A stretch of 30,241 bases of DNA, taken from the NCBI GenBank assembly GCA_964387335.1, contig CAYLWA010000001.1:1-30241 (forward strand), given 5' to 3'. This DNA is from an uncultured Candidatus Saccharibacteria bacterium (GTDB taxonomy: Bacteria > Patescibacteriota > Minisyncoccia > Phycocordibacterales > DATDWN01). Position numbers and translations under genes: made by a program. The notes beneath the pieces are model-generated. The model saw nothing but the letters and a program-made list of their open reading frames with translations. It was not told the DNA's origin and ran no database searches. Positions 23,042-28,250 of the stretch are shown in pieces; position 1 is the stretch's first letter; each line of letters starts with the position of its first letter.

Positions 23042-25186
23042 ATGAAAAATATTTTAAATTGGTCTGTTTTATTATCAATATTTATTATTCCTTTTATACC
23101 TTTTATTGTTTCGTCAACAATGCTCTTTCCTTTTATAACAGGAAAAGGTTTCTTTTTTAGGATTTTAATAGAAATCTCTTTTGCTTTATGGTTGATTCTA
23201 ATCTCTCTTGAACCAAAATTCAGACCAAAAATGACTAAACTGTCTTGGGCAGTCCTATTTTTTGGTTTTGTTGTACTGATCTCTGATTTGTTTGGTGTTA
23301 GTCCGTATAAAAGTTTTTGGTCAAATTATGAGAGAATGGAGGGTTTTGTCTTAATTGTTCACCTTATTGCTTATTATTTTATAATAACTTCAACTTTAAG
23401 TTCTAGACTTTGGAATGCTTTTTGGAATATTAATCTTGTTGCAAGTTTTGGTATGTTTATATATTCCGCTCTTCAAATAAGTGGTAAACTAACAATAAAT
23501 CAAGGAGGAGTTAGAGTTGATGGAACTTTCGGAAATGCAACATATCTAGCTATCTATTTGGTTATAAATATTTTCATAGCATTATGGTTTTTGTTTAAGA
23601 AATACAATAATTTTGTTTATGCAAGTTTGTATCTAATCTCCATTTTATCAAATATTTATGTTCTTTATTTTACAGCAACAAGGGGTGCTATATTGGGACT
23701 TGTATTGGGTGTTATTACCACATCACTTTTAGTATTTTTTGGTGCTAAAAATGATGATGATAAAAAGTTTAAAAAAATATCAGGCGCTGTCTTGCTTTTG
23801 GTTGCGCTGTTTGGTGTCGGGTTTTTCTCTGTTAGAAATGCTGATTTCGTAAAAACAAGCCCTGTTTTATCTAGGTTTTCATCAATATCAAAAGAAGAGA
23901 TTAAAAATCAAGGAAGAAGTTTTGTTTGGCCTATGGCAATAAAAGGATTTAAAGAAAGACCGATACTTGGTTGGGGACAGGAAAATTTTAATTATGTTTT
24001 CAATAAATACTACAATCCACTTATGTATAATCAAGAGCAGTGGTTTGATAGAACTCACAATGTGATTTTAGATTGGCTTATTGCTTCTGGGATAGTAGGC
24101 TTACTTGCTTATTTGTCGCTTTACTTTTTTGCAATTCTGTCTTTAAAAAGGTTAAATTTACCGGTAGTTGAAAGAGCGGTATTTATAGGATTATTTATAG
24201 CTTATTTTATTCATAACATATTTGTTTTCGATAATCTTATAAGTTACATTTTATTTATTTCTCTGATTGCTTATATAAATAGTAGAATTACAGAAAATCT
24301 TCCTGATAATACAAAACAGTATAATCCAGATCTTGTAAATTATGGTTTTATTCCGACTATTATAATACTGTCTCTTGTTTCTATTTACTTTATAAATATT
24401 CCAGCAATGATGCAGTCAAAATATGTAATAAAAAGTATAAGCCAAAATGATTACACAAAAAGTTTTGAAAATATAAAAAAAGCTTTCAGTTATAATTCTT
24501 TTGGAAACTCTGAATCTGTTGAACAGATTGTTCCTATGGTTGTTGGTGTTTCTTCTTCAAATTATCCAAACGATTTGAAGCAAAATTTTTTCAATTTAGC
24601 TTACGAGCAATCAAAAAAACAAGTTGAAAAAACTCCAAATGATGTAAGGTATTTGCTTTTATTCGGATCGTTTTTAAATAGGTTTGGTGCATACGATGAA
24701 GCTCTAAATACATTAAATAAGGCTGTCGAGAAATCACCAAATAAACCGATGATATATTTGGAATTAGGCTCAACTTATTTAGCAAAAGGAGATTACAAAA
24801 AAGCTTTGGAGGTTTTTGATAAAGCTTATAGTATTGAACCAAGATTTAAAGAATCAACACTTGTCTACGCCGTGGGTTCCATATATGCAGGAAGGCAGGA
24901 CATCTTTACTAAACTTCTACCTTCAATATCAGAGGATGTTTTCATAGGAGATAATAGATTCTTAAAAGCATTTGCTGATACTAAAAACTACACAGTTGCC
25001 TTAAATATTCTAAACAAGAGGTTACAGATAAACAAAGATGATCCACAAACACTTCTTTCTATGGCAGCTTTGTATGCTCAAATGGGTAATAAAAATAAAG
25101 CGATAGAAATATTGAGATCTATAATAGAAAAAAATCCTTCATTTAAAGATCAAGGAGAGTTTTACATAAAAGAACTTTCAAAGTAA
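23042..25186 (+). CDS. O-antigen ligase/O-oligosaccharyltransferase family (Wzy_C) membrane protein with C-terminal TPRs
   Basis: RVDGTFGNATYLA, TATRGA, RP.LGWGQENF, FDRTHNVILD (conserved His), then TPR-like helices (YDEALNTLNKAVEKSPN...YLELGSTY..KGDYKKALE). Confidence 0.88.
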   Translation: MKNILNWSVLLSIFIIPFIPFIVSSTMLFPFITGKGFFFRILIEISFALWLILISLEPKFRPKMTKLSWAVLFFGFVVLISDLFGVSPYKSFWSNYERMEGFVLIVHLIAYYFIITSTLSSRLWNAFWNINLVASFGMFIYSALQISGKLTINQGGVRVDGTFGNATYLAIYLVINIFIALWFLFKKYNNFVYASLYLISILSNIYVLYFTATRGAILGLVLGVITTSLLVFFGAKNDDDKKFKKISGAVLLLVALFGVGFFSVRNADFVKTSPVLSRFSSISKEEIKNQGRSFVWPMAIKGFKERPILGWGQENFNYVFNKYYNPLMYNQEQWFDRTHNVILDWLIASGIVGLLAYLSLYFFAILSLKRLNLPVVERAVFIGLFIAYFIHNIFVFDNLISYILFISLIAYINSRITENLPDNTKQYNPDLVNYGFIPTIIILSLVSIYFINIPAMMQSKYVIKSISQNDYTKSFENIKKAFSYNSFGNSESVEQIVPMVVGVSSSNYPNDLKQNFFNLAYEQSKKQVEKTPNDVRYLLLFGSFLNRFGAYDEALNTLNKAVEKSPNKPMIYLELGSTYLAKGDYKKALEVFDKAYSIEPRFKESTLVYAVGSIYAGRQDIFTKLLPSISEDVFIGDNRFLKAFADTKNYTVALNILNKRLQINKDDPQTLLSMAALYAQMGNKNKAIEILRSIIEKNPSFKDQGEFYIKELSK

Positions 25187-25195
25187 AATGAAAAC

Positions 25196-25224
25196 TTGAT
25201 TATTTTTTAGCTGTATGCTAATAT
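25196..25224 (+). promoter_or_regulatory. Promoter TTGATT-17-(TGc)TAATAT driving candidate small RNA 1
   Basis: TTGATT 25196-25201, TG 25216-25217, TAATAT 25219-25224. The predicted start (~25230) coincides with the 5' end of a GC-rich stem. Confidence 0.6.
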
Positions 25225-25228
25225 ATAA

Positions 25229-25311
25229 CGGAGTGCTCATCCGGAAAGTGCAAACTAGAAGGTGATGCTCCGAAAAAATAACACAAAAACGCCTTCGGGC
25301 GTTTTTGTGTT
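25229..25311 (+). ncRNA. Candidate small structured RNA 1 (unassigned): 44-nt GNRA-capped hairpin plus terminator
   Basis: CGGAG/CTCCG outer stem, about 15 bp in total, 4x4 purine loop GGAA/AGAA, AGU-GCAA-ACU cap; own promoter and terminator; no ORF. Confidence 0.55.
25280..25311 (+). terminator. Intrinsic (probably bidirectional) terminator
   Basis: Perfect 14-bp stem AACACAAAAACGCC / GGCGTTTTTGTGTT with a cUUCGg tetraloop. Confidence 0.9.
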
Positions 25312-25333
25312 GCATTAAAAGTAAAAATATAAT
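25305..25333 (+). promoter_or_regulatory. Promoter TTGTGT-17-TATAAT driving candidate small RNA 2
   Basis: TTGTGT 25305-25310 (inside the terminator's 3' arm), TATAAT 25328-25333. Confidence 0.5.
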
Positions 25334-25349
25334 ACTATCTATTTATAAG

Positions 25350-25437
25350 TTATTTTTAGTTGTGGTTGGTGATTCGCACTCAATTTTTATTTTTTAGGAG
25401 CAAGCTTTCACCAACCGCAACTGAAAGTAATTTTTTT
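25350..25437 (+). ncRNA. Candidate small RNA 2 (unassigned): 23-bp hairpin with three U-G wobbles, 35-nt loop, U7 tail
   Basis: Arms 25350-25372 and 25408-25430. All 3 deviations from a perfect inverted repeat are U-G on the + strand; a T7 run follows at 25431-25437. Confidence 0.55.
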
Positions 25438-25512
25438 ATAAATAAAATATTTTTGAAAATAATTTTATTTTTTTTAAAAAATATAAAATTTATTTTTATA
25501 ATACAAAAATAT

Positions 25513-25521
25513 TTATCCACA
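25513..25521 (+). promoter_or_regulatory. Perfect DnaA box TTATCCACA
   Basis: Exact consensus in an extremely AT-rich spacer, flanked by a 10-bp inverted repeat. Function not shown. Confidence 0.55.
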
Positions 25522-25581
25522 ATATTTTTGAAAAAATATTTGTATTCATTTTTTTTATGTAAGATAATTAATACAGGTCGG

Positions 25582-25600
25582 GTGATGAAAAAATCATCAC
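25582..25600. repeat. Inverted repeat GTGATGA-N5-TCATCAC (operator or hairpin)
   Basis: Perfect 7-bp arms read directly. Confidence 0.5.
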
Positions 25601-25636
25601 GAACTTTTAGAAAAATTAACAAGTATCTTTAAAAGA

Positions 25637-25642
25637 TATAAT
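25637..25642 (+). promoter_or_regulatory. -10 box for the small basic ORF (leaderless)
   Basis: TATAAT 25637-25642, ATG 25650 (7 nt spacer). Confidence 0.6.
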
Positions 25643-25649
25643 AAATAAA

Positions 25650-25718
25650 ATGGCAGCAAAAAAGAAAACAAAGAAAGCAGCAACAAAAAAGAAATCTGCT
25701 TCAAAAAAGAAAAGATAA
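25650..25718 (+). CDS. 22-aa Lys/Ala-rich basic peptide MAAKKKTKKAATKKKSASKKKR (histone-H1-tail-like)
   Basis: Too short for the ORF track. Has its own -10 box and terminator; every KKK is encoded AAA-AAG-AAA. Confidence 0.7.
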   Translation: MAAKKKTKKAATKKKSASKKKR

Positions 25719-25724
25719 TTTTCT

Positions 25725-25753
25725 AACAAAAACCCCTTTAAGGGGTTTTTGTT
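25725..25753 (+). terminator. Intrinsic terminator after the basic peptide gene
   Basis: 13-bp stem AACAAAAACCCCT / AGGGGTTTTTGTT, loop TTA, T-rich 3' side. Confidence 0.88.
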
Positions 25754-25777
25754 TTTATGGAAAAAAACTTTTATTTA

Positions 25778-25786
25778 TGCTATAAT
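25778..25786 (+). promoter_or_regulatory. Extended -10 promoter TGcTATAAT for secA
   Basis: TATAAT 25781-25786, ATG 25797 (10 nt spacer). Confidence 0.65.
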
Positions 25787-25796
25787 ACAGGTTCAT

Positions 25797-28250
25797 ATGA
25801 ATTTTTTAGACAAAATATTCGGTAGTATTAGTCAAAAGGAGATAAACTCTCTTATGCCTTTGGTTTCCAAAATAAATTCCTTAGAAAATCAGTATTCAAG
25901 CTTATCTGATAGTGATCTTAGATCTAAAACCGATTTGTTTAAAAAAAGAATTGCGGAAGGTCAGAATATAGATGATTTTTTAGATGAGATTTTTGCAACC
26001 GTTAGAGAGGCGATTAAAAGAACTCTAAATATTAGACCTTTTGATGTTCAACTTATAGGAGGTTTACTTTTGCATAAAGGTTTTATATCAGAAATGAAAA
26101 CCGGTGAAGGTAAAACAGTTGTTGCTTCATTTTCTGCTTACGCAAATGCTCTATCTGGAAAAGGTGTTCATGTTGTTACAGTAAATGACTACCTTTCAAA
26201 AAGAGATGGGGTTTCTATGGGGCAAGTTTATGATTTTCTGGGTTTGAGTGTTTCTGTGATCATTCACGATCAATCTTTTTTGTATGACAATACTCATAAA
26301 GAATTAGATGAGACGAGAGATAGTGTTTCTAATTTTAAAATAATTGAGCAATTTTTAAGAGAGTGTTCCAGAGGAAAAGCTTATTTAGCAGATATAACTT
26401 ATGGAACAAATAATGAGTTTGGTTTTGATTATCTTAGAGATAATTTGGAAAGAGATATAAGCAAACTAAGACAGAGAGGTTTTAATTATGCAATTGTTGA
26501 TGAGGTTGATTCTATACTTATAGATGAAGCAAGGACTCCACTTATTATTTCTTCACCTAAAACAGAATCAGAAGCTCTATACAAAAGATTTGCTGATATA
26601 GAGACAAAAATGATTAAAGATGTTGACTATACCGTTGATTACAAGTTTAGAACTATTGCTATGACAGAATCTGGTATAGAGAAAGTAGAAAAAATATTGG
26701 GTATAGAAAATATTTATACAAATAATGGTGTTGTTTTTGTTCATCATTTGGAAACCGCCATAAAGGCTGGTGCTTTGTTTACGAAAGATAAAGACTATGT
26801 TGTAAAAGATGGTGAGATTATCATTGTTGATGAGTTTACCGGAAGACTTCAACCGGGTAGAAGATGGTCAGAGGGTATACATCAGGCAATTGAAGCAAAA
26901 GAAGGTGTTAAGATTGGTGAGGAAACAAAAACTTTTGCTTCTATAACTTTTCAAAATTATTTTAGGATGTATAAAAAACTTTCTGGAATGACTGGTACTG
27001 CAATGACATCAAAAGAGGAGTTTTCAAAAGTTTATGGTTTAACTGTTGTTGAGGTTCCTACAAATAGACCAGTTGTTCGTCTGGATAAAAATGATTTAAT
27101 ATTTAAAACAGAGGTGGCAAAATTTAAAGCTATTGTTTCTGAAATTAAAAAAAGAAATCAAGTCGGTCAACCTGTTTTAGTTGGAACTGTTTCCATTGAA
27201 AAAAGTGAACTTCTTTCTAAATTTCTTTCTGCTTCCGGTGTTAAACACGAAATCTTAAATGCTAAAAATCATTTTAGAGAAGGGGAAATAATTGCCCAAG
27301 CGGGAAAAAAGGGAGCTGTAACTATTGCTACAAATATGGCGGGAAGAGGTGTTGATATAAAACTTGGAGGCAATCCAAATACAACTGAAAGTTATGAAGA
27401 AATAAAAAGACTGGGTGGTCTTTTGGTTATTGGAACAGAAAGACATGATGCAAGAAGGATAGACAATCAACTTCGTGGTAGATCAGGAAGACAAGGTGAC
27501 CCAGGAGAGACACAATTTTTTGTTTCTTTGGAAGATCATCTTATGAAAGTTTTTGGAGGGGATAGTTTCAAAAACACAATGGAAAAATTAGGATTTCCAG
27601 ATGACCTTCCTATTGAACATAAAGTGTTAAACAAAATGATAGAACAGGCTCAAAACAAAGTAGAAGGGTTTAATTTTGATGCAAGAAAGCATGTTCTAGA
27701 ATTTGATAATGTTTTAAATTATCAAAGAAATATTTTTTATGAAAGAAGAAGACAGATTTTGTCAGGTCAAGATCAAGAAGTATTAGATTATATAAAGAGC
27801 CTAAAAACTGATTTTGAGGATTTGGATATTGGTGAGGAGAGTTTAACTATTTATAAAAATAATTTACAAATAGTTAAAAATATTATTCTACAGACTTTTG
27901 ATATGTTTTGGGTTGAGCATTTGGAGGACATGGATTATCTAAGGAGTAGTGTAAATTTGAGAGCCTATGGACAAAGGGATCCTTTGGTAGAATATAAAAA
28001 AGAAGGTCTTTCTATGTTTAAAAAAATGGAGTCCAATATTAAAGCAGATGTAGTTAAGGTGGTTTCTAGTTTTTTAAATGATGTTAAGGATAATAAGCAA
28101 ATATTAAGTGTAAATGGTGGTCAAAATACTCAAATTACAGATATAAATAAAGTTAATGCTCCAAGAGATATTGATTTTAAAGATGTATCAAGAAATGATC
28201 TTTGTCCTTGTGGTTCTGGTAAGAAATTTAAAAAATGTCATGGTAAATAA
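25797..28250 (+). CDS. secA: Protein translocase ATPase SecA (817 aa) with C-terminal SEC-C metal-binding motif
   Basis: MKTGEGKT, VTVNDYL, YGTNNEFGFDYLRDN, DEVDSILIDEARTPLIIS, GMTGTA, ATNMAGRGVDI, QLRGRSGRQGDPG, CPCGSGKKFKKCH. Start moved to ATG 25797 (MNFLDKIFG). Confidence 0.98.
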   Translation: MNFLDKIFGSISQKEINSLMPLVSKINSLENQYSSLSDSDLRSKTDLFKKRIAEGQNIDDFLDEIFATVREAIKRTLNIRPFDVQLIGGLLLHKGFISEMKTGEGKTVVASFSAYANALSGKGVHVVTVNDYLSKRDGVSMGQVYDFLGLSVSVIIHDQSFLYDNTHKELDETRDSVSNFKIIEQFLRECSRGKAYLADITYGTNNEFGFDYLRDNLERDISKLRQRGFNYAIVDEVDSILIDEARTPLIISSPKTESEALYKRFADIETKMIKDVDYTVDYKFRTIAMTESGIEKVEKILGIENIYTNNGVVFVHHLETAIKAGALFTKDKDYVVKDGEIIIVDEFTGRLQPGRRWSEGIHQAIEAKEGVKIGEETKTFASITFQNYFRMYKKLSGMTGTAMTSKEEFSKVYGLTVVEVPTNRPVVRLDKNDLIFKTEVAKFKAIVSEIKKRNQVGQPVLVGTVSIEKSELLSKFLSASGVKHEILNAKNHFREGEIIAQAGKKGAVTIATNMAGRGVDIKLGGNPNTTESYEEIKRLGGLLVIGTERHDARRIDNQLRGRSGRQGDPGETQFFVSLEDHLMKVFGGDSFKNTMEKLGFPDDLPIEHKVLNKMIEQAQNKVEGFNFDARKHVLEFDNVLNYQRNIFYERRRQILSGQDQEVLDYIKSLKTDFEDLDIGEESLTIYKNNLQIVKNIILQTFDMFWVEHLEDMDYLRSSVNLRAYGQRDPLVEYKKEGLSMFKKMESNIKADVVKVVSSFLNDVKDNKQILSVNGGQNTQITDINKVNAPRDIDFKDVSRNDLCPCGSGKKFKKCHGK

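Follow-up and report, generated by a model that had tools for sequence, protein, structure and literature searches.

The window analysed here is a 30,241-nt stretch of DNA from genome G000, a 512-kb assembly (~31% G+C, 85% complete). The closest named relatives of this genome are MAGs assigned to Candidatus Paceibacteria and Kaiserbacteria, which are CPR bacteria of the Parcubacteria type. In the 560-bp spacer between the gene of a 714-aa Wzy_C/TPR protein (23042-25186) and secA, the initial annotation had recognized a small RNA with a promoter and a terminator of its own, and both signals are borne out by the sequence and its homologues. The -35 element TTGATT (25196-25201, plus strand) and the extended -10 element TGcTAATAT (25216-25224, plus strand) are set at a 17-nt spacing, and their position is conserved, with TTG found at the matching distance in all 51 homologues compared and a TAnnnT box in 49 of the 51. 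This promoter was not listed by the consensus scan because it matches the consensus at only 8 of 12 positions, in addition to the TG extension, and thus falls below the scan threshold. At the other end, an intrinsic terminator with a 14-bp extended stem and a UUCG loop is predicted at 25280-25311 (plus strand). The terminator scan reports this hairpin for the minus strand only, and the plus-strand U run lies partly within the extended stem; the terminators of the homologues are ordinary GC stems followed by U runs. The RNA delimited by these signals, denoted sRNA1 (25229-25311), is predicted at the sequence level to be ~80 nt long, with a sigma-70-type promoter and an intrinsic terminator of its own.

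The hairpin of sRNA1 (25229-25272, plus strand) folds exactly as initially drawn. In the MFE fold of 25228-25311 (-35.9 kcal/mol; z = -7.0 relative to 200 dinucleotide shuffles), it consists of 7 bp, a C bulge, 3 bp, a U bulge and 2 bp, followed toward the tip by a 4x4 GGAA/AGAA loop, 3 bp and a GCAA loop; the base of the hairpin, CGGAGUG/UGCUCCG, is conserved. Two further segments of sRNA1, defined by alignment and by pairing, are important for what follows: the 5' seed A (25229-25236, plus strand), with the sequence CGGAGUGC, the local form of the order-wide motif GUGAGUGC, and the 3' arm of the hairpin together with an A-rich linker (25257-25282, plus strand).

Comparison of the regions upstream of secA in relatives showed that another structured RNA, sRNA2, comes after sRNA1 in every case, encoded ~100 nt downstream on the same (plus) strand. 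In the window, sRNA2 is a long hairpin (25344-25444, plus strand; R2 covariance model score of 86.4 bits) with a 23-bp basal stem (25350-25372 paired with 25408-25430, plus strand, in the consensus fold) and with its 5' and 3' ends closed within the long helix. Compensatory changes were detected at 17 of the 27 consensus pairs, and the U-G pairs are possible on the plus strand only. Covariance model R2 detects a single copy of sRNA2 in 109 of the 151 genomes sampled from the order, which comprises more than 100 families, and also matches 33 genomes from other orders of the class; no match was found in 149 other genomes across the phylum, only six of which belong to the same class. The tail of the sRNA1 terminator holds TTGCAT, the -35 element of the sRNA2 promoter, and a -10 box belonging to sRNA2 itself is present in 75 of 85 loci, compared to 25% at random positions. 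Since each RNA has its own -10 box, sRNA1 and sRNA2 appear to be separate genes. A terminator-like hairpin follows sRNA2 in 37 of the 85 loci (12 in the reverse-strand control), and in many other relatives, murB starts 15-30 nt after sRNA2, so that sRNA2 may be a free RNA in some lineages and a leader in others. In G000, no gene lies directly downstream of sRNA2.

The remainder of the spacer contains several additional features. A 22-aa Lys/Ala-rich ORF (MAAKKK...KKKR; 25652-25720, plus strand) has its own promoter and is followed by a terminator (25730-25750), and 23 of 30 relatives have a similar Lys-rich ORF of 13-46 aa between sRNA2 and secA; the encoded peptide could bind RNA or the ribosome. 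The transcript of this small ORF starts with AGGUCGG, followed by a hairpin and then AACUUU (25575-25605, plus strand), with compensatory changes relative to the same-genus genome G001; this region appears to be a structured 5' UTR that the family has conserved. A perfect DnaA box, TTATCCACA (25513-25521, plus strand), is found in the AT-rich spacer ~45 nt upstream of the small-ORF promoter, and (G)TTATCCACA recurs at the same position in several other genera and families. We considered and set aside the possibility that the AT-rich spacer is oriC: the window contains only one perfect box, near matches occur at the level expected by chance, and dnaA lies elsewhere, on a different contig. For secA, the ORF as listed begins with TTG at 25749, relatives align only from residue ~8-17, and a TGCTATAAT promoter (25778-25786) lies upstream of an ATG at 25797; secA probably starts at 25797 and is translated from a nearly leaderless mRNA.

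Homologues of sRNA1 were reached only through synteny with secA and the neighbouring sRNA2: BLAST of the 120-nt element against 40 relatives yielded terminator-like matches only, and the single-sequence covariance model R1 recovered only the copy from G001. With this approach, the search upstream of secA that the initial annotation had proposed was productive, with a match to the sRNA1 profile upstream of sRNA2 in 74 of 91 oriented loci and with homologues in other orders. In the remaining 17 loci, no sRNA1 was found within 400 nt upstream of sRNA2, which weighs against the interpretation of the two RNAs as a pair. At the level of the class, sRNA1 precedes sRNA2 in 6 of the 7 loci examined, six of which come from other orders; the exception, L229, comes from the order that includes G000. 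The conserved parts of sRNA1 are the 5' end (consensus GUGAGUGC; CGGAGUGC in G000) and the region that extends from the 3' arm of its hairpin to the terminator, and the consensus layout comprises a promoter, the 5'-terminal GUGAGUGC, the hairpin, an A-rich linker ending with ACGAAUGUCU, and the terminator. The base of the hairpin begins inside the 5' motif and the apex varies. Alignment of 36 sRNA1 sequences with MAFFT followed by RNAalifold produced no consensus pairs because the variable hairpins misalign; hence, the sequences were folded individually, which showed a hairpin starting inside the 5' motif in ~90% of the homologues, with a mean z of -2.8. A CsrA-type GGA motif in the hairpin loop of the family of G000 was considered and dropped, as it is conserved neither in G000 nor outside the family.

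The Rfam 15 scan of the whole window gave no family at the gathering score; a permissive scan of 25150-25760 (E <= 10) gave 35 hits, all terminator-like noise with no SRP family among them; and a scan of 20 homologous loci gave terminator and hairpin noise only, apart from RNase P RNA genes that adjoin the sRNA1/sRNA2 pair in two relatives (L191:1-107 and L192:423-619). No Rfam family covers sRNA1 or sRNA2 in the window or in the 20 homologous loci, and a description of the pair was not found in literature searches. The 6S RNA model (RF00013) gave no 6S-like hit for the pair and detected no 6S RNA anywhere, with the caveat that it recognizes only 5 of 14 controls. The idea that the pair stands in for a missing universal RNA was rejected for RNase P RNA and tmRNA, both of which are encoded by normal genes in all five genomes searched, and is unsupported for 6S RNA.

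Of the two readings offered in the initial annotation, a highly diverged SRP-like RNA or a new RNA class, the second is upheld by conservation across the order and into other orders of the class and by the lack of a match to any curated family, whereas the first is not supported. Under the first reading, sRNA1 would be a 4.5S-like SRP RNA with an apex that mimics helix 8, binds an SRP54-type or substitute protein, and serves protein targeting near secA. Indeed, sRNA1 resembles the bacterial small SRP RNA (4.5S, RF00169) in its small size and its location upstream of secA, and in G000 alone also in the SRP-domain-IV-like geometry of the apex, in which 3 bp separate a GNRA tetraloop from a symmetric 4x4 purine-rich loop; a canonical SRP RNA was not found in G000 either. 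However, RF00169, which was detected in 13 of 14 control genomes, had no match in G000 at E <= 10 and none among ~40 relatives of the same order at E <= 1 (0/41). Searches for the M domain of Ffh (PF02978) were negative in all 41 relatives and in all 201 genomes across the phylum; the SRP54 GTPase domain (PF00448) yielded weak, sub-threshold P-loop hits only; the equivalog models for ffh and ftsY (TIGR00959 and TIGR00064) gave no hit in any of five genomes, two of them complete and from other classes; and no DT[AS]GR motif occurs in the six frames of G000. In the same genomes, the positive control, SecY, was readily detected, with E ~1e-100, so that the searches do work on these lineages. The completeness of the relatives is 90-100%, compared to 85% for G000, and the N runs in the G000 assembly are 100-nt scaffold gaps rather than masked genes. 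Overall, Ffh, FtsY and SRP RNA were undetected in all searched Patescibacteria genomes, and SecY and SecA are present. This absence is already known: a genome paper reports that the two SRP subunits are missing in many CPR bacteria (PMC8080830).

The apex itself is not conserved either. Already in G001, within the same genus, the GNRA loop and the 4x4 purine loop are replaced by a UUUUA loop and a GGAA/UAAU internal loop; a GGA/UAA loop occurs in other genera of the same family, and the hairpin is short and plain in most other families. Judging from these comparisons, the apex of the sRNA1 hairpin, with its GCAA and GGAA/AGAA loops, is lineage-specific, and its likeness to SRP helix 8 is a coincidence confined to a variable part of the hairpin. 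Taken with the results of the protein and RNA searches, this makes an SRP RNA at this locus extremely improbable.

What is conserved in sRNA1 is complementary to the apical half of sRNA2. The 5' motif GUGAGUGC is complementary to GCACUCAC on the 5' side of the sRNA2 apex; in the window, positions 25231-25236 of sRNA1 match the A' segment of sRNA2 (25376-25381, plus strand). The second block, 20-26 nt long, runs from the 3' arm of the sRNA1 hairpin into the linker upstream of the terminator and is complementary to the large loop at the apex of sRNA2 and to its 3' strand, where the sequence is typically AGACAUUUGUUUUGGAGC; in the window, 25257-25282 of sRNA1 is complementary to the B'C' segment of sRNA2 (25386-25410, plus strand), with an RNAduplex energy of -23.4 kcal/mol. 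The complementarity thus amounts to 28-34 nt in two blocks, and the order of the segments in the two RNAs is swapped relative to a simple antisense copy.

Several lines of evidence indicate that the complementary segments of the two RNAs co-evolve. In an alignment-free comparison of 53 genomes, the cognate duplexes have a mean energy of -22.0 kcal/mol compared to -15.1 kcal/mol for the non-cognate ones (permutation p <= 2e-4); for 32 genomes, the cognate RNA is among the three best of the 53 candidates. On alignments, 97.1% of the cells of the A:A' block are paired over 70 genomes, with 9 double-change cells compared to 1.7 expected, and the B:B' block contains 37 double-change cells compared to 16.1 expected; neither count was reached in any of 1000 shuffles of the genome labels. 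Explicit compensations between the two sites include GUAAGUGC/GCACUUAC, AUGAGUGU/ACACUCAU and GUGAGCGU/GCGCUCAC. Between G000 and its congener G001, AAAAAAUAA/UUAUUUUUU changes to AAAAUAUAA/UUAUAUUUU, where an A-to-U change in the sRNA1 linker is mirrored by a U-to-A change in the sRNA2 loop. Against the pairing, the A:A' helix in G000 is just 6 bp long and the B helix is A/U-rich. RNAcofold shows almost no gain for the dimer (mean ddG of -1.4 kcal/mol), but loop-to-tail pairing is a pseudoknot that this program is unable to represent, so that the result carries little weight in either direction. The co-variation indicates that what selection maintains in sRNA1 is complementarity to the neighbouring hairpin RNA, not an SRP-like geometry.

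These observations also bear on whether sRNA1 is a gene at all. It begins 43 nt past the stop codon of the Wzy_C/TPR gene, which is often the upstream neighbour in relatives as well, and might accordingly be taken for the 3' end of the mRNA of this O-antigen-ligase/TPR gene or for DNA palindromes kept by template-switch mutation. However, a promoter lies at a conserved distance between the stop codon and the RNA, and at other loci another gene, such as that of RNase P RNA, takes the upstream position. Furthermore, the conserved parts, the unpaired 5' motif and the linker, are not explained by a palindrome mechanism, the co-variation spans two separate loci, and the U-G pairs of sRNA2 form on one strand only. 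We therefore regard an origin of the element from an mRNA end or from palindrome mutation as very improbable, albeit slightly less so than an SRP RNA.

The reading that we consider the probable one is that sRNA1 is an independent small-RNA gene and a dedicated, trans-encoded antisense partner that pairs with sRNA2. The comparisons show conservation, separate promoters, the structures of both RNAs and co-evolving complementarity, whereas transcription, physical binding, and the direction and consequence of any regulation are inferred. The first contact would form between the unpaired linker of sRNA1 and the loop at the apex of sRNA2, and the pairing would extend into both hairpins by strand exchange, as in complementary antisense hairpin pairs. 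The resulting duplex of 20-26 bp could remodel sRNA2 or open it to RNase III, such that sRNA1 would determine how active or how stable sRNA2 is. In genomes with murB directly after sRNA2, the control exerted by sRNA1 would reach the downstream envelope and secretion genes. RNase III is encoded in all five genomes tested and Hfq was found in none of the genomes tested, a combination that fits Hfq-independent antisense pairing through a long duplex. On geometric grounds, simultaneous pairing of both segments with the basal stem of sRNA2 intact looks sterically strained, because two helices, of 8 bp and 22 bp, would have to be joined at their far ends by a linker of only 3-5 nt.

Three segments, GUGAGUGC, GCACUCAC and GGAGC (as UGGAGC), are nearly invariant. 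A pairs both with the 3' arm inside sRNA1 and with A' of sRNA2; A' pairs with C' inside sRNA2; and C' pairs with the 3' arm of sRNA1. The near-invariance may follow from these chained pairings, in which one change would need several others. Alternatively, a protein or a further RNA acting as a third partner could constrain the near-invariant 5' motif and its complement in addition to mutual pairing. The main rival of the antisense reading is that sRNA1 and sRNA2 are the halves of one bipartite RNA or RNP that form a stable junction and act jointly, perhaps in association with a protein, for which the Lys-rich peptide from the neighbouring ORF would be an example, neither of them regulating the other. 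The near-obligate adjacency of two single-copy genes fits such an arrangement, as do the near-invariance of the three segments, which exceeds what pairing alone demands, the closure of the sRNA2 ends in a long helix, as in stable RNAs, and the conservation of the Lys-rich ORF between sRNA2 and secA. However, no similar bipartite RNA is known and Rfam contains no matches; RNase P RNA and tmRNA exist as ordinary single genes, so that neither has been replaced; and sRNA1 and sRNA2 each fold stably alone. In our assessment, a stable two-piece RNP is possible, although rather unlikely.

Antisense pairing between two hairpin RNAs is known from the copy-control systems of plasmids, CopA-CopT of R1 and RNAI-RNAII of ColE1, in which the two RNAs are transcribed from opposite strands of one locus and the complementarity is therefore automatic. 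The sRNA1/sRNA2 pair shares with these systems two structured hairpin RNAs with extended complementarity, pairing that plausibly starts from a loop and proceeds by strand exchange into a junction or a long duplex, and a duplex long enough for RNase III with no need for Hfq. Unlike the plasmid pairs, sRNA1 and sRNA2 are encoded in tandem on the same plus strand, ~100 nt apart and from separate promoters, and accordingly, their complementarity must be kept by co-evolution; in addition, the complementary blocks are in swapped order, and the two genes are chromosomal, with conservation that extends across a class. Thus, of the two hallmarks of cis-antisense RNAs, two complementary hairpins are present and opposite-strand encoding is not.

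Sequence features typical of a trans-encoded sRNA, namely, a promoter, a terminator and a co-varying seed complementary to the target, are found in sRNA1. Like sRNAs of the RybB/MicA type, it has its own promoter, a conserved 5'-terminal seed, a hairpin and a Rho-independent terminator, and as in sponge/anti-sRNA pairs, its target is another non-coding RNA. In contrast to the RybB/MicA type, however, the complementarity extends over 28-34 nt in two blocks rather than over a short seed, there is a single dedicated target located next door, and Hfq was not found. The pair also resembles the T-box leader and its tRNA, in that an RNA acting in trans contacts two separate sites on a structured RNA that precedes genes, but the partner is not a tRNA, there is neither a T-box sequence nor an Rfam match, and sRNA2 lacks a terminator/antiterminator alternative.

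A pair of base-pairing RNAs is a known kind of element. What appears to be new here is the tandem encoding on the same strand, the swapped two-block complementarity kept by co-evolution, and the conservation across an entire class of CPR bacteria. The CPR (Patescibacteria) account for a large share of bacterial diversity and cannot be grown alone, and to our knowledge, almost no regulatory RNAs have been described in these organisms. sRNA1 and sRNA2 present a natural case of RNA-RNA co-variation in trans between separate genes and a concrete candidate for a regulatory unit. The presence of murB, secA and a gene for a tiny basic protein nearby, in a lineage that lacks SRP, points to a possible link to the control of envelope and export. 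More specifically, although we consider this improbable, the pair, located beside murB-hpf-secA and the gene of the tiny poly-lysine protein, might be an RNA device of SRP-less CPR bacteria that couples envelope growth and export to the state of the cell. In the strongest form of this idea, if true, the two RNAs would belong to an RNP that cooperates with SecA or the ribosome and performs some of the functions that SRP has in other organisms.
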